Source: Stegostoma tigrinum (Eukaryota). From it: a stretch of DNA of 64,000 nt. The notes beneath the pieces were generated by a model. The model was given only the letters and a program-made list of their open reading frames with translations. It was not told the origin of the DNA and made no database searches. A program made the translations under genes and the position numbers. The stretch covers positions 79,090,804-79,154,803 of the forward strand of contig NC_081359.1 of the NCBI RefSeq assembly GCF_030684315.1, written 5' to 3'. How positions within the stretch are numbered: the stretch's first letter is position 1; every line of letters starts with the position of its first letter. Positions 4,419-60,425 of this stretch are shown piece after piece.

Positions 4419-5411
4419 ACAAAAGAAATAGCATGAAGTGATTTACATACAAACGATGATGTTGTAGAAGGTTTACCTCCAAACTTTTGTTTGATTTCTG
4501 ATTAAAAGGCTTAGTTCCATTCAATTAACACATACTTCCTTTAATCCATTAGAACTTTTATCTTCAAAAGCTTACTGTTTACACTCAGGCACTGCGTGGC
4601 AGATTTTCAATTATAGCGCACAGCAGTAGTTGGAGCAGTTATACCACCCGTTCTGTAGCAACAGCAAGAGCCTTGAATCCATTTATGCTGGGGCCCCAAT
4701 GAAAATATTTATGAATGGTCCTGCTTGATTCAGTTAGTGCATAGGCCATCCATTTCAAGTACAGCTTACAAATGGATTCAAGTAGGCCAAGTGTGTCCAT
4801 TGAACAGGCAGACTTTAAATATATATTCAGCTGCCTACCTCCGTTTATTTTAACAAAAAAACCCACAATGGGAGGAATTCAAAGAATGTCTTCATTCTGA
4901 CACTTATTAGTGAGACATGAGGGGAATGTCATTTACCTGGGAATCCAGTTCTTTTGATTGCCACACAATGGTTATTACCCTAAAAAAGGTCAGTTTGGTT
5001 TTAACTATGATGCCTCCTTTAGTCAAATAGCCTCTCACCTAGGTTTACAAAATAAGAATTTGAGCAAAACAATAAAATGTGACTAAGACCAATAGAGGCA
5101 ATGTGGATCAATGCCTTCAGAAAAGATCAGATTAGGAAGGTTACTATTTCCTTCCTTGTCAAGCAGTATTAAATTTTCAGAGAGTGCATTTTAGCCGACC
5201 TATATAGAAAATATCTGATAGCCAGATTGATAAAGCATTTGTGTTTTAACTCCCTACAGCAAATGACATGATGAAATTCTGAATTTAAATATATACAATA
5301 ACTTTGATGAATTGAAAGATGACATAAAAGGACAGGAATTGTATCATGATAATAAAATGTGAGGCTGGATGAACACAGCAGGCCAAGCAGCATCTCAGGA
5401 GCACAAAAGCT

Positions 5412-5439
5412 GACATTTCGGGCCTAGACCCTTCATCAG
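5412..5439 (-). ncRNA. Minimal hammerhead ribozyme motif (one C>T in stem III)
   Basis: CTGATGA-A-GGGT CTAG GCCC-GAAA-T-GTC on the minus strand. Confidence 0.55.
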
Positions 5440-5846
5440 AGAGGGGGATGGGGAGAGGGAACTGGAATAAATAGGGAGAGAGGGGGAGGCGGACCGAAGA
5501 TGGAGAGTAAAAAAGATAGGTGGAGAGAGTGTAGGTGGGGAGGTAGGGAGGGGATAGGTCGGTCCAGGGAAGACGGACAGGTCAAGGAGGTGGGATGAGG
5601 TTAGTAGGTAGCTGGGGGTGCGGCTTGGGGTGGGAGGAAGGGATGGGTGAGAGGAAGAACCGGTTAGGGAGGCAGAGACAGGTTGGACTGGTTTTGGGAT
5701 GCAGTGGGTGGGGGGGGGGGGGGGAAGAGCTGGGCTGGTTGTGTGGTGCAGTGGGGGGAGGGGACGAACTGGGCTGGTTTAGGGATGCAGTAGGGGAAGG
5801 GGAGATTTTGAAACTGGTGAAGTCCACATTGATACCATATGGCTGC

Positions 5847-6506
5847 CCCACCACCCAAGACATTTTTCCATCCCCTCCCCTGTCTGCTTTCCGGAGAGAC
5901 CACTCTCTCCGTGACTCCCTTGTTCGCTCCACACTGCCCTCCAACCCCACCACACCCGGCACCTTCCCCTGCAACCGCAGGAAATGCTACACCTGTCCCC
6001 ACACCTCCTCCCTCACCCCCATCCCAGGCCCCAAGATGACATTCCACATTAAGCAGAGGTTCACCTGCACATCTGCCAATGTGGTATACTGCATCCACTG
6101 TACCCGGTGCGGCTTCCTCTACATTGGGGAAACCAAGCGGAGGCTTGGGGACCGCTTTGCAGAACACCTCCGCTCAGTTCGCAACAAACAACTGCACCTC
6201 CCAGTCGCAAACCATTTCCACTCCCCCTCCCATTCTCTAGATGACATGTCCATCATGGGCCTCCTGCATTGCCACAATGATGCCACCCGAAGGTTGCAGG
6301 AACAGCAACTCATATTCCGCCTGGGAACCCTGCAGCCATATGGTATCAATGTGGACTTCACCAGTTTCAAAATCTCCCTTTCCCCTACTGCATCCCTAAA
6401 CCAGCCCAGTTCGTCCCCTCCCCCCACTGTACCACACAACCAGCCCAGCTCTTCCCCCCCACCCACTGCATCCCAAAACCAGTCCAACCTGTCTCTGCCT
6501 CCCTAA
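5847..6506 (+). pseudogene. C-terminal part of the Penelope-like ORF: Zn-knuckle linker and GIY-YIG endonuclease (RT domain missing)
   Basis: CNRRKCYTC linker, then NVVYCIHCTRCGFLYIGETKRRLGDRFAEH...VANHF...EQQLIFRLGTLQPYGIN. The N-terminus of ORF 5595..6506 is read-through of the inverted arm. Confidence 0.9.
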
Positions 6507-6722
6507 CCGGTTCTTCCTCTCACCCATCCCTTCCTCCCACCCCAAGCCGCACCCCCAGCTACCTACTAACCTCATCCCACCTCCTTGACCTGTCCGTCTT
6601 CCCTGGACCGACCTATCCCCTCCCTACCTACACTCTCTCCACCTATCTTCTTTACTCTCCATCTTCGGTCCGCCTCCCCCTCTCTCCCTATTTATTCCAG
6701 TTCCCTCTCCCCATCCCCCTCT

Positions 6723-6750
6723 CTGATGAAGGGTCTAGGCCTGAAACGTC
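6723..6750 (+). ncRNA. Minimal type I hammerhead ribozyme motif
   Basis: CTGATGA-A-GGGT CTAG GCCT-GAAAC-GTC: catalytic core, stem II, palindromic ACGT stem III and GUC cleavage triplet. Stem I is only ~2 bp. Confidence 0.7.
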
Positions 6751-7524
6751 AGCTTTTGTGCTCCTGAGATGCTGCTTGGCCTGCTGTGTTCATCCAGCCT
6801 CACATTTTATTATCTTGGAATTCTCCAGCATCTGCAGTTCCCATTATCTCAGGAATTGTATCATAGCTAGTTAAATGATATCTATATCTTTAAGATCATC
6901 TGAGGTTAGAGTTTGGAATTGGGAATTGTGAAAGCTATTCACATGTGCTTGCTGCTCTTTCATTCTTCCCACTGTTTGAACAGAAAACAATGCCACAAAA
7001 GTAAAATAATAGCTTCCCCTTAAAAGACAATAATTAGATAGTGAATATTTGCAAGTTATGCACCATCAATAATCACCTGTATTTTAAATGTAGAGCGTTA
7101 TCACTGTTCCATCACTGTTCTTGATTTATTAGATTGTCTGCTTACCCTAACCCAAATGGAGTGCGCAGTCTTTCAATTTCTACTGCAGTCTGGCTGTTGT
7201 GTTGAAATAAGCTTGGATCATACAGTATGCATGATGTCCATAGTTCTTTGTTTTTCATGTCAGCAGTTATGTTGAATTAAAACCATATAAACATCAGCCA
7301 GGGAAACAAGCTTGCTTATTTTGTTTCTGAATATATTCAAGGGATGCCAATCAGCTTCTCTAAATCCGAATTCCTTATGACATCACAGACAGACACTTTT
7401 TTTCTGACTGATCCCTGGAGGAATTGAATATATTTTCCTCTTTTGGGTAAATAAGTTATTAATAATCAAGAAAAGTTGCAGTTGGTAGCTGTTGTCCTTC
7501 CATCAATTTTGAGAATCCCAATTT

Positions 7525-7830
7525 GGCACCCCATCTACCACCATTAACGTTCACTTGCTCCACTACCAACATATAGTGGGAGTAATGTGTAGCATCTATA
7601 AGATGCACTACAGTAAATCACCAAGGCTCCTTAGACAGCACCTCCCAAACCCATAATGTCTACCATCTAGAAAGACAAGGGCAGCTGATGCATGGGAACA
7701 GCACTGGGTGTACCTACATCCATGGTGTACAGCAGTTCAAAATGACATCACCTTCTCAAGGGATATAGGGACATCTAATAAATATCAACCAAGCCAGCAA
7801 CACACACATCCTATGAACAAATAATAAAAG
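7525..7830 (+). mobile_element. 3' end of an old L2/CR1-group LINE
   Basis: catctataagatgcact...ccaaggctccttagacagcacctcccaaaccc...caccttctcaaggg...A-rich end. The tail resembles the end of 35205-35570. Confidence 0.6.
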
Positions 7831-8032
7831 AAAACAATAGTGGAAAACTGGTTAATCAGAGCCAAAAAGTTTTAACTTAAATTGGTACATAATTGGGAAA
7901 ACTGACCAAAATACTCTCTAGTTTCTGTTAAGAAAGCACAGAAAAAGATGATTTAATGCTTGATTTCCTAACCCATATTGCTGGCTACCAGCATTGCCAA
8001 CATCAGCAATTATAAGATCACCACTATTAGTA

Positions 8033-11000
8033 CATAAGAACATAAGAACTTGGAGCAGGAGTATGCCATCCAGCCCTTCGAGCCTGCTCTGCCATTTAGT
8101 AAGGGCATGACTGATCTTTTTGTGGACTCAGATTCACTTACTCACGCTCTCACTGTATCCCTTAATTCCATTATTGTTCAAAAAAAAAATCTACCTTAGC
8201 TTTAAAGACATTTACTGAAGTGGCGTCAACTACTTCACTGGGCAAGGAATTCCACAGATTCACAACCCTTTGGGTGAAGAAGTTCCTTCTCAATTCAGTC
8301 CTAAATCTGCTCCCTGTAATCTTGAGGCTATACCCTCTTGTCCTAGCTTCACCTGCAGTGGAAACATCCTCTCTACTTCTATCATATCTATTCCCTTCAT
8401 AATTTAATACATTTCTATAAGATCCCCCCCTCAATCTTCTGAATTCCAATGAATATAATCCCAATCTACTCAGTTTCTCCCCATAAGCCAACCCTCTCAA
8501 CCCCGGAATCAACCTAGTGAAACTCCTCTGCACCCGCTCCAGTGCCAGTCAATCCTTTCTCAAGTAAGGAGGCTAAAACTGCACATAGTACTCCAGGTGT
8601 GGCCTCACCAGCACCTGTATAGCTGCAACATAACCTCGCTGCCTTTAAACTCGATCCCTTTAGCAATGAAGGACAAAATTCCATTTGCCTTCCTAATTAC
8701 TTGTTGTACCTGCAGACCAACCTTCTGTGATTCCTGCACAAGGACACCCAGCCCCTCTGCATAGCAGCGTGCTGCAACTTTTTACCATTGAAGTAGTAAT
8801 CGTTTTTACTATTACTCCTACCGAAATGTATGACTTCACATTTATTTACATTGTATTCCATCTGCCAGACCTTTGCCCACTCACTCAATGTATCTATGTT
8901 CCTCTGCAAAGTTTCACAGTCCTCTGCACATTTTGCTCTGCCACTCATCTTCGTGTCACCTACAAACTTTGACACCCTACATATTGTCCTCAACTCCAAA
9001 TCATCTATATAAATTGTACATAATTGCGGTCCCAACACCGATCCCTGGCACACCACTAGTTACTGATTGCCAGCCAGAATAGCACTCATTTATCCCCACT
9101 CTTTGTTTCCTGTCAGTCAACCAATCCTCTATCCATGCTAATGAATACTTTACGCCTAACGCCATGCATCCTTATCTTATGCAGCCGCCTCTTGTGCGGC
9201 ACCTTGTTGAAGGCCTTTTGGAAATCTAGGCATACCACATCCACTGGGTCCCCATTGTCCACCTTGCTTGTAATGTCTTCATAGAATTCCAAAAGATTTG
9301 TCAAGCATGACCTGCCCTTCATGAATCCATGCTGCGTCTGCCCAATGGGACAATTTCTATCGAGATGCCTTGCTATTTCTTCCTTGATAATAGACTCAAG
9401 CATGTTCCCCACTACGGAAGTTAAGCTAACTGGTCTATAATTCCCCATCTTTTGTCTGCTTCCCTTTTTAAACAGTGGCATCACATTTGCTGTTTTCCAA
9501 TCTGCTCAGAATGCCCCGGAGTCCAGCAAATTTTGGAAAATTACCGCCTGTACACCTGCAATTTCTCCCGCCATCTCTTTTAGTACCCTGGGATGCATTC
9601 CATCAGGGCCAGGAGACTTATCAATCCTTAGCTCCATTAGCTCATCCAACACTATCGCTTCTGTAATAATGATTGTTTACAGATCCTCACCTACCTCCGA
9701 CTCTTTGTCAATTACTGACATGTTATTAGTGTCCTTCACTGAGAAGACCGATACAAAATACCTGTTCAATGCCTCAGCCATTTAATGACATCCCACAACT
9801 AAATTCCCTTTCTCATCCTCCAAAGGGCCAATGTTTACTTTAGCCACTCTTTTGTTTTATATTTTTATAGAAACTTTTGCTATCTGTCTTTATATTCTGT
9901 GCTAGTTTTTTTCTCATGTTCTATCTTACTTTACTTTGTAGCTCTTTTTGTGCCTTTCTGTTGACCTTTAAAGTTTTCCCAATCTTCTTGTTTCATGCTG
10001 TTTTTGGCAACTTTATACGCCTTCTCTTTCAATTTGATAGACTTCCTTATTTCCTTAGACACCCATGGCAGATTACTCCTTTTCTTACAATCCTTCCTTT
10101 TCACTGGAATATACTTCTGCTCAGCACTTTGAAAATCCTCCACTGCTTGTCAACTGTCCCATCATAAAATCTTTGTTTCCAGTTTCCTTTAACCAAGCCC
10201 TCCCTCATTCTATTATAGTCTCCCTTGTTCAAACACAGGGCCCTGATATTGGATTTTATCTTCACACTCTCCATCTGTATTCTAAATTCAAAAATACTGT
10301 GATTGCTCCTTCCAAGAGGATCCCTAACTATGAGGTTATTCATTATTCTTGTCTCATTACACAGGACCAGTTCTAGGATAGCTTGCTCCCTCGTTGGTTG
10401 CATTACATACTGTTCCAGAAAACTATCATGGATACACTCAACAAACTCCTCCTCAAGGCTACCCTGACAGAGCTGGTTCAACCAATCTACATGAGATTAA
10501 AATCCCTCATGACAATTGCCGTACCATTTTTATAGGCATTAGTTATTTCTTTGTTTATTGCCTGCCCCAATGTGATGTTATTATTTGGTGGCCTATAGAC
10601 TACGCCTATCAGTGACATTTTCCTCTTAGAATTTCCAATTTCCACCCAAATGGATTTAACCTCATTCTCCATAGAACCTATATCATCTCTCAGCACCGCC
10701 CTGATGTCGTTCTTGAATTTCAGAGCTACACCACCTCCCTTACCTTCCTTTCTGTCCTTCTGAATAGTCTGGTACCCCTGGATATTTAACTCCCAGTCGT
10801 GACCAGCCTGTAACCGTGTTTCCATAATGGCGACCAAATCATATTCATTCGCGATGATTTGTGCTGTTAACTCATCAACCTTGTTACGAATGCTACGAGC
10901 ATTCAGGTAAAGTGCCTTTATGCTAGTTTTTTTACCCTCATGATTTCCAGCATCTCTAATAATATCTCCTGAGTTATCCTTCCTTTTTGCTTCTTTCACA

Positions 11001-11430
11001 GTCTGCCCTGAACTTTAACCCCCTGCACACGTGCTAACTTGCCGCTTACCTTTTTACTTACCATCACACTCCCTGGTGTTTTTCCTTCCCCCCAACTCAT
11101 TAGTTTAAAGTCCTAGTGACCACCCTATTTATCCTTTCCACTAGAACACTGGCTCCAGATCGGTTCAGGTGGAGACCGTCTCATCGGTACAGATCCCCTG
11201 GTTCCAAAAGTGTTGCCAATGCGCCATGAAATGGAACCCCTCTTTCCCACACCACTCCCTTAGACACGTGTTTACTTCCCTAATTTTCTTATCCCTAAGC
11301 CAATTTGCACGTTGATGGGGCTGTAATCTGGAGATTTTGACCCTTGAGGACCTGTTCCTTAATTTCATTCCTAGTGCTTGATAATCCCCAAACAGGTCCT
11401 CCATCCTAGACTTGACTATGTTGTTAGACA
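8033..11430 (-). mobile_element. CR1 LINE, long decayed copy (ORF1 esterase end, AP endonuclease, RT, (TTCTTATG)n tail)
   Basis: ORF fragments YLNARSIRNK...GGGVAL...MRDFNL, NYRPVSLTSVV, QHGFMKGRSCLTNLLEF, QGSVLGP..YIDDL, FFTQRVVNLWNSLP; cataagaa repeat at 8033-8048. Confidence 0.93.
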
Positions 11431-11619
11431 ATTTCATGGATCAACTTTTATCATAAATAACTAGATCAACATATTGGAATCAAATACTTCCTAGCTCATG
11501 GAAGCAGATGTCTCACCAGATCTATTCTACTTGTCTGCCATGCTAAACATTTTCTGAATCAGCCATTGCTATAGCCTGGTAGTCATATCTTTCTTTAGTT
11601 TCTCTCCTTTCACCCTTCG

Positions 11620-12985
11620 GAGAGTCATACAGCACAGAATCAGACTCTTCAGTCCAACTTCTCCATGCTGACCGAGTTTCTCAAACTAAACATAAGAACA
11701 TAAGAACTAGGAGCAGGAGTAGGCCATCCGGCCCCTCGAGCCTGCCCCACCATTTAATAAGATCATGGCTGCTCTTTTTGAGACTCATCTCCATTTACCC
11801 GCCCACTCACCATAACCCTTAATTCCGTTACTGTTCAAAAATTTGTCTAGCCTTGCCTTAAACACATTCAGTGAGGTAGCTTCAACCACTTCACTGGGCA
11901 GGGAATTCCACAGATTCACAACTCTTTGGGTGAAGAAGTCCCTCCTCACCTCAGTCCTACATCTGCTTCCCCTTATTTTCAGTGATGCACCCTAGTCCTA
12001 GTTTCAGCTGCTAGCGGAAACAGCCTCCCTGCCTCCACCTTATCTATTCCCTTCATAATCCTGTATGTTTCTATAAGATCTCCCCTCGTTCTTCTGAATT
12101 CCAATGAGTATAATCCCAGTCTACTCAGTCTCTCCTCAGAATTCAACCCTTTCAACTCTGGAACCAACTGAGTGAATCTCCTCTGCACCCCCTCCAGTGC
12201 TAGTATACTCCTTCTCAAATAAGGAGACCAAACCTGCACACAGTACTCCACGTGTAGCCTCGCCAGGACCCTATACAGCTGCAGCAGAGCCTCCCTGTTT
12301 TTAAACTCCATCCCTCTAGCAATAGCAGACAAAATTCCATTTGCCTTTTTAATTACCTGTTGCACCTGCAATCCTACTTTTAGCGATTTCATGCACAAGG
12401 ACATCCAAGTCTCTCTGCATAGCAGCATGCTGCAATTTTTTACCATTTAAAACATAGTCCATTTTGCTGTCATTCCTACCAAAATGGATGACCTCACACT
12501 TATCAACATTGTATTTCATCTGCCAGACCTTTGCCCACTCACTTTGACCAGCTATATCCCTCTGCAGACTTTCAGTGCCTTCTGCACACTTTGCTCTATG
12601 ACTCACCTTAGTGTCATCTGCAAATTTTGACACATCACACTTAGTCCCCAACTCCAAATCATCTGTGTAAATTGTAAACACTTGCAGTCCCAACACTGAT
12701 CCCTGAGGCACACCACTAGCCACTGACCGCCAACCAGGAAAACACCCATTTACCCCTACTCTTTGCTTTCTACTGGTCAACCAATAAACCAATAAACAAG
12801 TCCCATTTGGTTACAAAGTGTGGGGCTGGATGAACACAGCAGGCCAAGCAGCATCTTAGGAGCACAAAGGTTACATTTGGCCCACTTCCCGCTTAACCTT
12901 TCCTAGTCATGTACCTGTCCAAATGTCTTTTAAATGTTGTAACTGTATCTGCATCGACCACTTTCTCTGGCAGTTCATTCCATAC
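11620..12985 (-). mobile_element. Older CR1 3'-end fragment interrupted by the 11691-12785 CR1 and a Penelope fragment (~12812-12868)
   Basis: agtcatacagcacagaa...ccatgctgacc resumes after the insertion as agtcccatttg...tggcagttcattccatac. Confidence 0.6.
11691..12785 (-). mobile_element. CR1 LINE, 5'-truncated (RT C-terminus plus tail)
   Basis: SGVPQGSVLG..KFADDTK..; cataagaacataagaa tail at 11691. Highly similar to 29870-30970. Confidence 0.92.
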
Positions 12986-27949: not shown

Positions 27950-30900
27950 TTCAACTCTGTTGAAAATTAGGAAAAAAAGTTAAAGAGAAGGAGAACTCAA
28001 GAGCTGTTAATAATGGAGATAATAGGACCCAAAAAAAGGTGCAAAAACTGGTATAAGGGCACTTTATCTGAATGCTCAGAGCATTCGAAACAAGGTGGAT
28101 GAGTTGACGGTGCAAATCATGGCAAATGGGTATGATTTAGTGGCCATTACAGAGATGTGGTTACAGGATGGTCATGACTGGGAGTTAAATATCCAGGGGT
28201 ATCAAACTGTTCGGAAGGGCAGACAGGAAGGTAAGGGAGGTGGTATTGCTCTGATTGTTAAGGATGATATCAGGGCGGTAGTGAGGGATGATAGAGGTTC
28301 TACTGAACAGAAGGTTGAATCCATTTGGGTGGAAATTAGGAATAGCAGGGAGAAGAAGTCACTGGTAGGTGTGGTCTATCGGCCATCAAATAATGATATT
28401 GTGGTGGGGCAGGCAATAAACATAGAAATAGCTAATGCATGTAAAAATGGTTCAGCAATTATCATGGGGGATTTTAATCTACATATTGATTGGTCAAACC
28501 AGATCAGTCATGGCAGCCTTGAGGAAGGGTTCAAAGAATGCATCCGCGATAATTTCCTTGAACAATATGTAATGGAACCTATAAGGAAGCAAGCTATCCT
28601 AGATCTAGTCCTGTGTAATGAGACAGGAATAATTAATGATCTCACAGTTAGGGATCCTTGCGGAAGGAGCAATCACAATATGGTCGAAATTAAAACAACG
28701 ATGGAGCGTGAGAAGGTTAAATCCAGTACCTATGCTCTGTGCTTAAACAAAGGAGACCACGAAGAAATGAGGGAGGAGTTAGCTAAGGTAGAGTGGGAGC
28801 AAAAGCTTTATGTTGGCCAATTGAGTAACCGTGGAAGACTTTCAAAACAATTTTTCACAGTGCTCAGCAGAAGTATATTCCCGTGATAAGGAAGAACTAT
28901 AGGAAAAGAGAGAGCCAGCCATGGATGTCTAAGGAAATAAAGGAAAGTATCAGATTGAAAAAAAACCACATACAAAAAAGAAAAGAGTAGTGGGAAACAA
29001 GTCGACTGGGAAATCTTTAAAGGCCAACGGAAAGTCACCAAAAAAGTTATAAAGAAAAGTAAAATAGATTATGAGACTAAATTAGCTCAGAATATAAAAA
29101 CAGGCAGCAAAGGTTTCTATAAATATGTAAATCATAAAAGAGTGGTGAAGGTAAACATTGGTCCTTTAGAGGATGAGAAGGCCAATTTAATAACTGGGAA
29201 TGAGGGAAGAGCCAAGACATTAAACAATTATTTTGTGTCGATCTTCACTGTGGAAGACACAAATAACATGCCGAAAGTTAATGGGAAGAAGGTTATAGCA
29301 GGTGAGGAACTAGAAACTATTGTCATTACTAAGGAGGCAGTGCTGGGCAAACTAATGGGGCTAAAGGTAAACAAGTCTCCTGGCCCTGATGAAATGCATC
29401 CGAGGGTACTAAAAGAGGTGATGGGGGAAAATAGCAAATGCACTAGTAATTAATTACCAAAATTCACTGGACTCTGGGGTGATTCCTGCAGATTGGAAAA
29501 CAGCCAATGTGACACCACTGTTTAAAAAAGGAAGTAGACAAAAAGCAGGTAACTATAGGCCAGTTAGCTTAACTTCGGTGGTGGGGAAAATGCTTGAATC
29601 TATCGTTAAGGAAGAAATAGCAAGACATCTGGATATAAATTGTCCCATTGGGAACACCCAGCATGGGTTCATGAAGGGTAGATCATGTTTAACTAATTTG
29701 GTGGAATTCTTTGAGGACATTACTTGCATGGTGGACAATGGGGAACCTGTGGATGTGGTGTATCTGGGTTTCCAGAAGGCATTTGACAAGGTGCCACACC
29801 AAAGGCTACTACATAAGATAAAGTTGCATGGTATTACAGGTAATGTATTAGCATAGATAGAGGATTGGTCGACCAGTAGAAAGCAAAGAGTAGGGGTAAA
29901 TGTGTGTTTTTTTGGTTGGCGGTCAGTGGCTAGTGGCGTGCCTCAGGGATCAGTGTTGGGACCACAATTGTTTACAATTTACATAGACGATTTGGAGTTG
30001 AGAACTGTGGTATGTCAAAAGTGTGATATGTCAAAATTTGCAGATGACACTAAGGTGAGTCGTAGAGCAAAGTGTGCAGAAGGCACTGAAAGTCTGCAGA
30101 GGGAGATAGCTGGTCAAAGTGAGTGGGCAAAGGTCTGGCAGATGAAATACAATGTTGATAAATGTGAGGTCATCCATTTTGGTAGGAATAACAGCAAAAT
30201 GGACTATGTTTTAAATGGTAAAAAATTGCAGTACACTGCTGTGCAGAGAGACTTGGATGTCCTTGTGCATGAAATCGCTAAAAGTAGGATTGCAGGTGCA
30301 ACAGGTGATTAAAAAGGCAAATGGAATTTTGTCTGCTATTGCTAGAGGGATGGAGTTTAAAAACAGGGAGGCTATGCTGCAGCTGTATAGGGTCCTGGTG
30401 AGGCCATATCTGGAGGACTGTGTGCAGTTTTGGTCTCCTCACTTGAGAAGCAATATATGAGCACCGGAGGAGGTGCAGAGGAGATTCATTCGGTTGATTC
30501 CAGAGTTGAGAGGGTTGGATTATGAGGAAAGACTAAGTAGACTGGGATTATACTCATTGGAGTTCAGAAGAACAAGGGGAGATCTTATAGAAACATATAA
30601 GATTATGAAGGGAATAGATAAGGTGGAGGCAGGGAGGTTGTTTCCGCTAGCAGGTGAAACTAGGACTAGAGGGCATCGCCTGAAAATAAAGGGAAAGCAG
30701 ATGTAGGACTGAGGTGAGGAGAACTTCTTCACCCAAAGGGTTGTGAATCTGTGGAATTCCCTGCCCAATGAAGTGGTTGAAGCTACCTCGCTGAATGTGT
30801 TTAAGGCATGGCTAGATAAATTTTTGCACAGGAAAGGAATTAAGGGTTATGGTGAGTGGGTGGGTAAGTGGAGCAGAGTCTCAAAAAGATCAGCCATGAT

Positions 30901-30970
30901 CTTACTAAATGGTGGGGCAGGCTCAAGGGGCCGGATGGTCTACTCCTGCTCCTAGTTCGTATGTTCTTAT
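27950..30970 (+). mobile_element. CR1 LINE, nearly complete frameshifted ORF2 (AP endonuclease plus RT) with 3' tail
   Basis: ORFs 28095..28886 (EN: GGGIAL, GVVYRP, IMGDFN, LDLVL), 29479..29856 and 29902..30312 (RT: QGSVLGP, FADD); 3' end ttcgtatgttcttat. Confidence 0.95.
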
Positions 30971-38639: not shown

Positions 38640-38814
38640 CATAAACATTAACTGTTGCTTTCCTTTTTTTCATAGTTTCCCCACTTTTCACTTGACAGAT
38701 GTAGTTTCCCTTGTCTGTTGTAAACACGTTTTCTATAACAAATGTGCTGTAAAATGTATTTATTCTAGGGTCTGTCTGGTCAATTCTAGTGGTTATAGAT
38801 GCATTTCTATTTTC
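38640..38814 (-). CDS. FLT1: FLT1 exon 7 equivalent (Ig domain 3, C-half), 175 bp
   Basis: tttcag|GAA...TATG|gtaaga. ENRNASITTRIDQTDPRINTFYSTFVIENVFTTDKGNYICQVKSGETMKKRKATVNVY. Confidence 0.94.
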
Positions 38815-43226: not shown

Positions 43227-43332
43227 GCTGCAGGTTTTTCCAGAGCACAAAAAATGCAAATTGCTACATGCAGGGGTACATAACACGAAACGTTTTTCCT
43301 GCGGAGTATTTCAAAATGTTCTGCATGTCAAT
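43227..43332 (+). repeat. Source of the 106-bp segment duplicated at 44322-44427
   Basis: Ungapped match, 9 mismatches by my count. Confidence 0.93.
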
Positions 43333-44242
43333 ATGAGCCGGAAGGAAAAAGAGAAAATGTGAATTTCACATTTGAATTAGGCAATTTGTGATGATTTGCA
43401 CACAAACTAATTGCTAAAACGAAAACAAAATTAGAAAAATATTTCCTGAACCATGTTTTATACACAATTAACCAGAAAATCTATTTGTGATGTCGACTAT
43501 TCGTTATGCAGCTTTTCATTTCAGTAATAAATGTATGAATAATTCTTCCCTAATTTTTTAAAGCAAAAATATGTACTTTCTTGACATTTCATCAAGTAGA
43601 AGGTAATTAATGACACCTTAATAACTTCCCTAAAATGCGTCCAGTGTTGGACTTTGTTTACCTAAGGATCATTACAAAATAATGTGCTCAATGCCAAGTA
43701 CAAGGTAGATTTTCAGCGATTGGTTAGGTATTTATTCTAAAGCAAGGACTATGAAGCACAATTTAAAATTCCTAAACATTTACATATATTCTGATTGTGT
43801 GCCTGGAAATTGAACTCAGTTTTAAAAGTTTACACTTAATGTAATAAGTTTCCTATTGAATAGGATAAGAATAAAGCATTTCTAGTTTACACTAAATAAT
43901 AATAGTATGATGATGTGTCTTTAAGATGGATTTGTCTGTCCTGGCTCTCTTGAAGAGAGGCATTGAGAATCTGATGCCAAGGTGTATGCTCAGTGGAAAG
44001 CAGAGTAAATAGCTTTAACGTTTTTGAAAAGTAGACAAAAAAAGTATGAATGGGTGGAGTTGGGCTCACACAAAGCCAGGTTTTATGTTTTGCTTTTAAC
44101 TGTAGAAGTTGGCGTTTTGGATTTGAATCTGCTAGTTACAGCTCTATCTCTATTGCTGCAAAAGCTTGTGATCTCTCTCTGCTGCCAGATTCTTTCTGTC
44201 GGTGTTTCTTCCCCTGGACTGAAGAAGGCAGCAAGTGAGGGA

Positions 44243-44556
44243 TAACAAGGTGTAGAACTGGATGAACACAGCAGGCCAAGCAACATCAGGGGAGCAGGAA
44301 GGCTGACGTTTCGGGCCTAGGGCTGCAGATTTTTCCAGAGCACAAAAAATGCAATTTGCTACACACAAGGGTACATAACATGAAACGTTTTTCCTGTGGA
44401 GTGTTTCATAATGTTCTGCATGTCAATTTCAGAAGGGTCTAGGCCCAGAACGTTAGCCTTCCTGCTCCTCTGATGCTGCTTGGCCTGCTCTGCTCATCCA
44501 GCTCTACACCTTGTAATCTCAGATTCTCCAGCATCTGCAGTTCCTGCTATCTCTAA
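44243..44556 (+). mobile_element. ORF-less Penelope-like family A hairpin element with captured host DNA (44322-44427)
   Basis: Inverted arms ~44241-44320 and 44428-44518, tail to 44556; target duplication agcaagtgaggga at 44230-44242 and 44557-44569. Confidence 0.9.
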
Positions 44557-45207
44557 AGCAAGTGAGGGAAATCTGATTTACTTGTTTTGCCTTTGCCAAG
44601 GTTTATGCCATGCTGATTTATTGGAGCAGTTGTTGAGTAATAGTTAAATAATTCTTAAATATTTCAATAGAGTTAAACATATGCCAATTCTTTTTTTGTT
44701 TGTATTTTATCTCTTGTGGAAGAAATAAAGTGTTTTGTTTAAAGCCTAATAATTTGACAAATCAAATCACATCTGGAAATCAGTGCCTTACACTTTCCTC
44801 TAAATGAGAGAATGTAAGGATCTAGGCTATCTCCTTGAGGTTTTGAGGAGATTGGTCTGGTTCATAACAACAGAGATGTGCAAACATTGATCTTTCTTTC
44901 TCTTCATTTAAGTGCATCAAAAGTTATTTTATATATGTTGGTTAAGTTTTTTTTTAAAGCTGTGGAGAATTGTCTCTGTGTAAAATTTGTAAAAGTGAAA
45001 TTAAAGGGATTGCAATATCTTTTCAGTTTCATGGCGCTCTGCCAATCTAAATTATTCAATCATACTTTGATCTTTAAGTACAACGTCTTTCAACATTTCC
45101 TGGTAATTCTGATGGGCAAAAGAGACATCCAAAAACAAAGGCTGAATTATCAACTAGACTGTTTCTTTCAATGCTTTTGAAGTATATATCCTGCTCAAGA
45201 AACTTAC

Positions 45208-50140: not shown

Positions 50141-50387
50141 CACCAGAAAGCCTATTTATATAAATGTGCACTTCTTTACAGATGCCTGCTAGTACAATGT
50201 GAAAGTTAGCCACAAGGGATATAGTTACTCTTTGAAAAGAAAGCTATACAGTGTTCAGCAATCACACATAGGCAAACATTTATCTAAAGTGATAATACGA
50301 ACTGCAGATGCTGGAGAATCCAAGATAATGAAATGTGAGGCTGGATGAACACAGCAGGCCCAGCAGCATCTCAGGAGCACAAAAGCT

Positions 50388-50415
50388 GACGTTTCGGGCC
50401 TAGACCCTTCATCAG
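50388..50415 (-). ncRNA. Intact minimal hammerhead ribozyme motif, in sense within FLT1 intron 4
   Basis: CTGATGA-A-GGGT CTAG GCCC-GAAAC-GTC. Confidence 0.7.
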
Positions 50416-50824
50416 AGAGGGGGATGGGGTGAGGGTTCTGGAATAAATAGGGAGAGAGGGGGAGGCGGACCGAAGATGGAGAGAAAAGAAGATAGGTGGA
50501 GAGGAGAGTATAGGTGGGGAGGTAGGGAGGGGATAGGTCAGTCCAGGGAAGACGGACAGGTCAAGGAGGTGGGATGAGGTTAGTAGGTAAGAGATGGAGG
50601 TGCGGCTTGGGGTGGGAGGAGGGGATGGGTGAGAGGAAGAACAGGTTAGGGAGGCAGGGACAGGTTGGACTGGTTTTGGGATGCAGTAGGGGAAGGGGAG
50701 ATTTGGAAGCTGGTGAAGTCCACATTGATACCATTGGGCTGCAGGGTTTTTCTTTTCTCTCCATCTTCAGTCCGCCTCCCCCTCTCTCCCTATTTATTCC
50801 AGAACCCTCACCCCATCCCCCTCT

Positions 50825-50852
50825 CTGATGAAGGATCTAGGCCCGAAACGTC
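50825..50852 (+). ncRNA. Minimal hammerhead ribozyme motif (one stem II mismatch)
   Basis: CTGATGA-A-GGAT CTAG GCCC-GAAAC-GTC. Confidence 0.6.
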
Positions 50853-52249
50853 AGCTTTTGTGCTCCTGAGATGCTGCTGGGCCTGCTGTGTTCATCCAGC
50901 CTCACATTTCATTTATCTAAAGTGAACTTCTGTGTGATCCTTTTCCCTGATGTCTTCAATCTTAGGTTGTACCTCATAAAACAACTTACAAGATGTTTAT
51001 TTTATGGGAGGTTTATTTATTATGCTGCAATTTTTTAGGCATATTAATGTACAATAATATTTTGAGGAAGAATTAGCAAAAAAATACAAAATTATCATTT
51101 TGTTGTTTATGGCCTGTTTCAAATGCACTAGAATTGCAACTTTGTTTCCTGTGAGATTGTTGTTTTTGATTGTTTGTAATAGAGCCAGTCTAATTCTACA
51201 AGTGAATAAAAAATTGCTGAACTTCTTTAAGTAGCACAAATAAGCCTTTTGATTAATTTGAATTATTTCAAGCCATTTCTTTTGAATCTACTTGTCCTAT
51301 CTGAGCTTTCAGTTATCCAACATTTGCATCTAAAATATTATGTCTCGCATGATTCAATGTTATCCAATCTTATATACGTCTTCGTTTTTCTCTTCCACGT
51401 ATCATACAACTATTTTCCTTATCCAGCTAAATTTTTAGTACAAGTGGATTTACCCTAATAAAGGCAGAAAAATTGATAAATCATACAGTCAATTCATTTT
51501 CTCAAGAGTATTGAAACAGGTATTTCTCTGTAATATTCCCTGAATATAACGTGAAATTTAGATCGTTTGTAAACTTTGTTTACTGAAACGTAAGCTGTGC
51601 TCTATGTGGCTAAGATGATCTTGACTTTGCTCCAGATTTCATTCCAGTTGACAGGAATCAAAGCTTAAGCTGGCAACTTGGAACTTTACATATTCTGCTT
51701 CTTTAAGTCAACACATAATGTATTAAAATATTCTCGTGTTCTTTAACATGATTGATGACACATAAAAAGCCTGCCTAAAATTCTAAGTTAATAATTTTAA
51801 CAGTGAGTGCAATAGAAGTTTTATTTTAAATAACCAATATTTAAATGAAAGCTTTTTTAAGCTCCATGGCAAAATTCATAAAAGAACTTTCTTCTTTGCA
51901 CAATAAGCATTAAATGCTTTGTTAATTAATTCTAAAACGAACCAGTCTCTCACATGAATCAGACTAAAGGGAAGATACTTTTTCAAGAACACTTGCTTGG
52001 CCTCATTTATCATATTTAATTTGTGCGATAAGCAGCTATAGGATCTGAGCCTTTATTGATCACACTCATTCAGCACACCATACCTTCTCCCACAAAACTA
52101 GATGCACTACCATTAAAAAAAATGCTCCCCTGAGGATTTTTGATGACTTGATCAGACACTTCTACGTGGACAGCTATACTACAGTAAATAGCAGGAGCTG
52201 GCATGAAAGAAAGTCAAAGAAAATTTTACGTCATGGAGAATTCCACCTT

Positions 52250-54500: not shown

Positions 54501-55333
54501 CTGAAACAAAATCAACATTTTTATTCAGCTGAAACTTAAGGAAATGGTTTTGCAATGCAGAAAATTGCTAGCCCAAAGACAGACTCGTTAAGAGTTCACT
54601 TATGTTTACATGGAAGCATATATAACCTGAAGTAACAGAATTGCACAGGCATTTTTCCAAAGATCTATTAGAATAAAAGCCGAAGTTTGCTTCAGTGTCA
54701 ATTTTTTCACTAAAAATGGCACTTGTCTTTAAAACAATCCACACCTGCAACATATTCATTTTGTAGATAAATAGTATGAGTGAAGAACATCATTAAAGTA
54801 GTTTTTCAGGCATACCATTTATAGCAAATTCTCACAGGCTTTACTCTTGCCATGTTTGTGAATCTCATTGACAACGACACCTTTTTCATTGCCAGTTTCA
54901 ATAATTCACTGTTACTGAAAATATCCACTAGGTATCACATTTGACCTGTACAGTAGCTACAATTAGAACATTTGACAGGAAAGAAAATGCTACAGTACAT
55001 TCATTGGTATAATGGGGCGTATACATGAAACTATTTTGATGAACTATTTGTTTCTTTGTAACAGGAGTAATCGTATAATTGCTTTGCCCAACATAACTGG
55101 GTACTACTGGAGAATTATTAGGTTGTTAAATGTGCACAAAAACATAAGTAGTCCTATGATATGGTTGTTCTGGCATGGATGGTCTGAAATGTAGCACCCA
55201 ATATATGCCTTGTATCTTTGAATACAGTGATTCTACAATTATAGCTCATAGCAATGTGAAAATATTAGCTCTTAATTGTATTGTTGGGTCCAAATTGTTG
55301 CCAATCAAGAAAAACAAGCTCTGTACAACAGTA

Positions 55334-55558
55334 ACAAAGACAGAAGTTTCTGAAAAAGCTCAGCAGGTCTGGCAGCATCTGTGAAGAAAAATCAAGAGTA
55401 AACGTTTTGGGTCCAGTGACCCGTTCTGCGGAATAGTCACTGGGCCCAAAATGTTAACTCTGATTTTTCTTCACAGATGCTGCCAGACGTGTTGAATTTC
55501 TCCTGAAATTGTTGTTTTTGTTTCTGATTTACAGTATCTGCAGCTCTTTTGGTTTTTA
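55334..55558 (+). mobile_element. ORF-less Penelope-like family B hairpin element (~225 bp)
   Basis: Arms tctggcagcatctgtgaagaaaaatca...ttttgggtccagtgac / gtcactgggcccaaaa...tgatttttcttcacagatgctgccaga plus tail. Diverged 15-bp target duplication ctctgtacaacagta (55319) / ctttgtgcaacagta (55559). Confidence 0.85.
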
Positions 55559-60207: not shown

Positions 60208-60425
60208 CCTTAACAAATATATAGAGCGCAGTCTTTCTTTGTCGGGCATTTGAAGATGAGCTATTGCAGTAATAGTATCCTGTGTCTTTAGCCTGCGTTT
60301 TGCTTAAAGTCAGGTTACTCCAGAAAGGTCTATTGCTGACCCCACTGTTAAAATTAATTATACTCAGTCTTTCAGTTCCATTAATTACATGATTTGGCCA
60401 GGACCATGATACATGTGATGATCCC
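60208..60425 (-). CDS. FLT1: FLT1 exon 3 equivalent (Ig domain 1), 218 bp
   Basis: ttttcacag|G...GTTAAGG|gtaaga. Translates GSSHVSWSWPNHVINGTERLSIINFNSGVSNRPFWSNLTLSKTQAKDTGYYYCNSSSSNARQRKTALYIFVK, with the Ig DTGxYxC motif. Absent from the ORF track. Confidence 0.92.

Follow-up and report, generated by a model that had tools for sequence, protein, structure and literature searches.

A short Penelope hairpin lying in an intron of FLT1 carries, between its two inverted arms, a copy of neighboring chromosomal DNA, and comparable local copies recur at the centers of sister hairpins elsewhere in the genome. On the strength of sequence comparison, the capture is confirmed as real and local, with host DNA copied into the hairpin and the insert being the derived copy. 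The mechanism that we favor, with a probability of roughly 0.6, is one in which each of the two DNA ends is extended on pLTR RNA, after which one free cDNA end briefly takes chromosomal DNA of the vicinity, probably exposed by resection, as its template, and the ends are then joined. The features of the window, i.e., the whole 64,000-nt stretch of DNA analyzed here, are collected in Table 1.

Table 1. Features of the FLT1-intron hairpin and its surroundings (window positions)
Feature	Position	Strand	Remark
Younger copy of the same family, GIY-YIG fragment and same pLTR	5345..6852	+	family reference
FLT1/VEGFR1 exon, 3' side of the host intron region	38641..38814	-	top match VEGFR1, E 1.1e-10
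Donor, unique intronic FLT1 DNA	43227..43337	+	908 bp left of the element
Target-site duplication, left copy, 13 bp	44230..44242	+	last 2 nt common with the arm
Left arm, inverted pLTR copy without tail	44241..44320	-	ends in hammerhead loop II
Junction base G	44321..44321	.	A in both donor and element
Captured direct copy of the donor, 111 nt, 11 differences	44322..44432	+	
Right arm, sense pLTR without the CUGA core	44431..44554	+	
Tail of ~36 nt, on the right arm alone	44519..44554	+	tail as described in PMC11167929 and PMC8557442
Target-site duplication, right copy	44557..44569	+	2 extra A before the right copy
FLT1/VEGFR1 exon, 5' side	60209..60424	-	top match VEGFR1, E 1.2e-13

The insert is placed between two inverted Penelope pLTR arms, which are complementary at 71 of 80 positions (44241-44320 versus 44439-44518), and the whole is enclosed by a single 13-bp target duplication (AGCAAGTGAGGGA). 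Its core, 44322-44427, is an ungapped direct copy of 43227-43332 (106 nt, nine mismatches, offset 1095), and the chance of such a copy arising in the window is ~1e-39. A DNA search of the 3.2-Gb genome of the species with the 106-mer matches the donor and the insert only, counts of this kind being lower bounds. The initial annotation is thus borne out in its central points, namely a Penelope hairpin within a target duplication, which captured local host DNA and for which exactly two genomic matches had been predicted. The copy is in fact somewhat longer than it had proposed. Public sequencing runs cover the stretch in the same species and one relative, and since the donor of the relative carries the insert letters at 43333 and 43335, the copy extends to at least 111 nt. 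The donor allele of the relative also has the insert letters at 43234, 43260 and 43302, and it aligns to the insert over 44322-44436, as far as the equivalent of 43341. At the right junction, the element and this allele overlap over 44431-44436 (5/6 nt). The G at 44321 is either an added base or a later change within a 2-nt overlap. Both arms of this copy are cut back, with the left one stopping about 15 nt short of the usual family 5' end, and the hammerhead is broken. The left arm, which the initial annotation had stopping in stem II, ends in loop II, and the CUGA core, near which the right arm was said to resume, is missing from both arms. No Rfam hammerhead match was obtained at the gathering score in the window, nor by E-value at the element. 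The copy encodes nothing and is probably neutral.

The host gene is FLT1 on the minus strand, as two minus-strand exons flanking the region match VEGFR1 best; in the direction of transcription, the donor is thus placed downstream of the insertion. The donor gives no signal of conservation: 7 of its 111 sites are changed in the relative, compared with 79 of 1236 (6.4%) for the whole stretch aligned, and the suggested duplication of regulatory DNA finds no support. An empty site in related species had also been anticipated, but none is seen in the relative: its contigs, which come from two studies, start at 44536 in the tail and run on into the right flank. Hence, the insertion appears to predate the species split and to be common to both.

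The window holds several further matches to the arms, one of them with a GIY-YIG fragment. A search with this fragment gave 150 scored copies among 273,879 candidates, all of them 99-100% identical, and the family therefore looks recently active. One locus, L231, has an open frame of 716 aa with an RVT_1 match (E 2.3e-5) followed by a GIY-YIG match (E 0.0025), both scoring below the Pfam curated cut-offs, and the frame is succeeded by the same pLTR, at 86% identity to the arm of the FLT1-intron copy. The EN+ Penelope-like combination of a reverse transcriptase (RT) and GIY-YIG in one ORF is thus found in L231, and the inverted 5'-truncated pLTR, the one-sided tail of 30-40 nt and the target duplication are found in the FLT1-intron copy. 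In sister copies, CUGANGA, stem II and GAAAC-GUC can be recognized by eye, with no Rfam match, in a form that fits the description in PMC4209133. As described in PMC3846280, PMC8557442 and PMC11167929, the EN+ elements of the Penelope/Poseidon type share with this family the RT with a C-terminal GIY-YIG, the pLTR with a minimal hammerhead motif (putative in this family), the inverted truncated copy, the 30-40-nt tail at one end and the target duplication. Two younger Penelope insertions with long inverted arms also lie in FLT1 (5345-6852 and 50288-50918).

Exact-anchor patterns recover 14,106 short hairpins in the genome, and three such patterns for hairpins with longer centers recover 699, 592 and 544, over ranges that partly overlap. 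Among the matches listed, the near-perfect palindrome is the commonest form, and the center junctions vary from copy to copy; each insertion would therefore form its hairpin anew. A MITE-like hairpin copied as a unit was rejected on these grounds, namely the unique spacer and the variable junctions. The 29 next-best copies of the arm include 16 hairpins, none with a foreign spacer of at least 30 nt. Most arms stop 2-4 nt 5' of the hammerhead CUGA core, away from the predicted cleavage site, and this stop may mark where a short pLTR transcript begins.

The survey of hairpin spacers that the initial annotation had called for reveals that the event recurs. From five pattern listings (20 of 50, 20 of 50 listed, 20 of 100, 20 of 100 and 40 of 95), 120 sister loci were chosen by eye without sight of the flanks, mostly for foreign-looking centers; each was taken as 10 kb, and donors were sought over 4.75 kb on each side. 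One of the 120 has no hairpin by our script and 23 have no foreign run of 20 nt. Foreign spacers of at least 30 nt have a donor in their own locus in 35 of 93 cases, whereas the cross-locus rate predicts 1.07. A looser threshold gives 40 local matches, 14 of which were removed before distances were counted, leaving 26 curated events. Those dropped are five fold-backs of the immediate flank (L074, L123, L125, L172 and L219), five whose donor adjoins another Penelope copy (L076, L118, L132, L173 and L180) and four dispersed or simple repeats matching elsewhere about as well or better (L119, L183, L184 and L203). Four of the 14 lie at 2.0-4.6 kb, and without this filter 36 of the 40 still fall within 2 kb. 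Among 75 consecutive, unpicked long-center hairpins, seven have a donor at 1.5 kb or less (one counted twice and one a fold-back), from which we extrapolate to about 100-200 local captures in the genome, or ~1% of hairpins. Both spacers searched genome-wide have distant donors in plain DNA: that of L048 (4958-5069) on contig C25 at 96%, the best of a repeat family, and that of L057 (4952-5095) 13.6 Mb away on C1 at 99%. Proximity is therefore not required for capture.

The 26 curated donors are 40-139 nt long and lie 57-1955 bp from their elements, with a median of 566 bp. A uniform spread over 4.75 kb is rejected (KS p 3.5e-10), and an exponential with a mean of 678 is not rejected. For 10 of the 26, a better donor was sought out to 15 kb and none was found. 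With the FLT1-intron copy added, the 27 events comprise 15 direct and 12 inverted copies. By side, 11 donors lie at the tailed and 15 at the tail-less end, and one hairpin has tails on both arms; the combinations are tail-less direct (9), tail inverted (6), tail-less inverted (6), tail direct (5) and two-tailed (1). The tail is one-sided in 26 of the 27, and a target duplication of at least 11 nt is found by script in 18 of them. The captured pieces are not AT-enriched (59.5 versus 58.8%).

These observations can be assembled into a sequence of steps. A staggered cut would generate the 13-bp duplication, which is seen in the sequence. Each 3' end would then prime reverse transcription, one at the start of the tail and the other at an inner start; two start sites are suggested by the one-sided tail. 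This agrees with in vitro work on the Penelope protein of a lizard, in which both strands were cut and extended from two start sites that bound the tail (PMC11167929). As a rule, both cDNAs run up to one fixed position immediately 5' of the hammerhead core, which would be the 5' end of the RNA, and most pairs are seen to be joined directly or with a few extra bases. In an extrapolated ~1% of cases, one end would anneal to flank DNA within ~2 kb, copy 40-140 nt, be released and join the other cDNA; the copy, its length and its distance are observed directly, and a DNA template exposed by resection is the probable source. The polymerase for the capture could be the element RT or a host repair enzyme. 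The two inverted arms represent one and the same stretch of the RNA, so that two cDNAs were probably joined, and a single polymerase switching from the element RNA to the neighboring template and back, as first suggested, becomes unlikely. Captures are both direct and inverted, as would be expected if either the opposite end or the same end can serve as the template (PMC7165422). We infer two separately primed cDNAs, an open break, a template of resection-exposed DNA and a capture during integration.

An alternative is that the template was RNA, with the Penelope RT jumping from the end of the element RNA to a nascent pre-mRNA near the break, in this case that of FLT1. Such behavior has parallels in the L1 RT, whose products include chimeras with cellular RNAs, some of them at inversion junctions (PMC13174262, PMC11702581), and the distant donors of L048 and L057 could likewise be RNAs. 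For the sister loci, scanning 299 of 367 exon candidates against Pfam placed the host strand for five events, a second batch giving none; ZCCHC3-type matches, which are probably repeat-derived, were set aside. Together with the FLT1-intron copy, the six events with a host strand split evenly, with no bias seen: the donor is upstream in host transcription in L079, L052 and L068 and downstream in L073, L050 and the FLT1-intron copy, the strand for L068, L073 and L050 coming from exons on one side only. A transcript whose polymerase had halted at the break would offer upstream DNA alone, and the donor directions contradict it; other RNA models are not affected by this. Strand bias was itself rejected as a way of telling DNA from RNA templates, since either arm can prime and a sense RNA template is formally possible in every event. 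In the FLT1-intron copy, indeed, the longer overlap fits priming by the left arm on the FLT1 sense strand. The pre-mRNA of a long intron would, however, have no obvious 2-kb limit on both sides. Thus, where chromosomal DNA and FLT1 pre-mRNA had been offered as equal candidates, DNA is favored, and the parity of pre-mRNA is not supported, given a donor downstream of the cut, the three-to-three split and the confinement of donors to ~2 kb. We regard an RNA template as unlikely.

The overlaps at the junctions bear on the same question. If the 3'-ended flank strand is assumed as the template, each event has a predicted priming and a predicted rejoining junction. Overlaps of at least 2 nt occur at 10 of 26 rejoining and 2 of 26 priming junctions (Fisher p 0.019), and those of at least 3 nt at 7 versus 2 (p 0.14); a mismatch-tolerant definition of the ends gave 9 versus 0 at 3 nt or more, and the stricter recount is preferred. 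Extra bases are found at 22 predicted priming and 13 predicted rejoining junctions. The asymmetry points the same way as that described for polymerase theta (PMC7165422). The support that this asymmetry lends to a resected-strand template is modest, because labeling by tail gives a similar split (tail-less arm 6, tailed arm 2) and the FLT1-intron copy runs against the trend, having its longer overlap (5/6 nt, with the allele of the relative) at the predicted priming junction.

A further possibility is that a near-perfect palindrome was integrated first and that its center broke soon after and was patched with a copy of nearby DNA. Palindromes are fragile. The near-perfect palindrome is the commonest form among the hairpins listed (14,106 matches in all), the FLT1-intron copy has both arms cut back, and the same sides, orientations and distance scale would be predicted. 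Yet the age of the inserts tracks that of the arms: the mean divergences are close, at 6.1% between donor and insert and 7.0% between arms, and are correlated (Spearman 0.57, p 0.002). The inserts are thus about as old as their arms, the corresponding values for the FLT1-intron copy being 8.5% and 11%, and the capture probably dates from integration. Moreover, in 34 of the 54 arms the end still lies no more than 6 nt 5' of the hammerhead core, at the fixed point that a break at the center would often erode. Later repair is accordingly an unlikely account of the captures.

It is very improbable that the 111-mer traveled within an element transcript or is a fixed spacer of the family. In rotifers, Penelope elements do hold host sequences between their pLTRs and mobilize them in trans (PMC3846280). 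However, the 106-mer has just its two genomic matches (at a lower-bound count), no Penelope sequence adjoins the donor in this genome, the contigs of the relative pass straight through the donor, and the junctions differ between copies. An assembly artefact, which the initial annotation had judged unlikely, can finally be set aside: of the 11 differences between donor and insert, the relative sides with the donor at 6 and with the insert at 5, so that the insert retains older letters and misassembly is excluded, and both junctions between flank and arm recur without any difference in a second sample of the species, while the lack of an assembled contig of the insert itself in 4/4 runs proves nothing.

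Returning to the joining of two primed cDNAs, we hold a stronger version of it only tentatively, in which integration proceeds via a true double-strand break with ends primed separately, at times on different RNAs, and staying open for kilobase-scale resection. The number of variable columns separating the two arms of one hairpin is 2.2, versus 5.9 for random pairs (69 hairpins), a count contaminated by truncations and indels. In L058 (4837-5137), and also in L060, L105, L177 and L186, the linked subfamily variants differ from one arm to the other, which suggests two RNA templates in one insertion. The captured piece of L058 is 100% identical to its donor.

Several known systems resemble these hairpins in part. 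Copies of rotifer EN+ elements likewise hold host DNA between pLTRs (PMC3846280), but here the host piece is at the inversion junction of a solo-pLTR hairpin, its donor lies within 2 kb and the event is recurrent; the accessible parts of the papers on EN+ elements (PMC3846280, PMC8557442, PMC11167929) report no local donor or distance scale. Self-priming is favored for inverted junctions in PMC3846280, whereas the junctions described here fit two separately primed ends better. In L1 twin priming, too, cDNAs from opposite ends are joined at an inversion junction, and short (<250 bp) nearby genomic templates are copied, for which an SDSA-like explanation is given (10.1101/2024.08.27.596794; PMC11702581). 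In these sources, the L1 templates are placed within 15 bp of the site (22 instances in ~3,600 somatic insertions), and three further cases are called "near"; their supplementary figures may give distances nearer to those found here. The captures here differ in having a median distance of 566 bp and in being inherited. The structure of the FLT1-intron copy fits two opposite-end cDNAs meeting at an inversion junction in one target duplication, where both would have been primed from their own ends. The L1 form of twin priming, with a poly(T) primer and cDNAs from non-overlapping parts of one RNA, was rejected for it, as its two arms span an identical 80-nt segment and poly(A) is absent. The hairpins hence work like twin priming but differ from its L1 form.

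The templated insertions of polymerase theta (TINS; PMC7165422) share direct and inverted copies of the flank, a longer overlap at the second junction and extra bases. They are 3-30 bp long, stem from the immediate flank and are AT-enriched, whereas the captures here measure 40-139 bp, reach out to 2 kb and lack AT enrichment; the TINS class was therefore rejected on length, median distance (566 bp) and AT content. The greater length and distance of the captures relative to polymerase-theta insertions count against our preferred reading. In L1-RNA chimeras (PMC13174262), foreign sequence similarly enters with the element inside one target duplication, but the partners described there are abundant RNAs or distant mRNAs and not adjacent intron DNA. 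In the literature covered, which takes in subscription papers poorly, we found no report of nearby DNA being copied into the inversion junctions of Penelope elements. It is known that Penelope can capture host DNA and that L1 junctions can hold templated insertions; a two-sided capture on a ~0.6-kb scale at Penelope hairpin centers was not found in print.

The formation of inverted Penelope structures has been called undefined (PMC8557442) and the steps after priming unvalidated (PMC11167929). As had been expected of it, the FLT1-intron copy does inform on how these structures form, but its value is that of one entry in a genome-wide record: the center junctions of more than 14,000 exact-anchor hairpins record the joining step, and each captured piece yields a side, an orientation, a length, a distance and an age. 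Two-ended versus self-priming, and DNA versus RNA templates, thereby become testable from an annotated assembly alone. If integration does proceed via a double-strand break, the hundreds of captured flank pieces would serve as a natural ruler of germline resection length and would steadily supply short local duplications, and the formation of inverted Penelope structures would be settled.

Some other hairpin centers have distinct structures. In L073, L078, L079 and L188 (older subfamily; centers near 5000), A runs extend the arm ends flanking the captured piece, and in L053, L062, L063 and L066 (centers near 5000) the spacers are the element's own sequence from beyond the tail. In L074, L123, L125, L172 and L219 (centers near 5000), the spacer is an inverted copy of the flank adjoining the element. 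The 90-nt foreign spacer of L054 (4951-5040) forms a near-perfect hairpin of its own, and no donor for it lies within 5 kb. At L076, the whole hairpin is repeated with its spacer and flank 2.7 kb away at ~90% identity (4840-5200 and 7500-7890). The window itself also contains palindromic repeats of a different family (55321-55534 and 2731-2892) and decayed LINE-like copies with endonuclease- and RT-like frames (8034-12785 and 27973-30970), which may be of the CR1 type.
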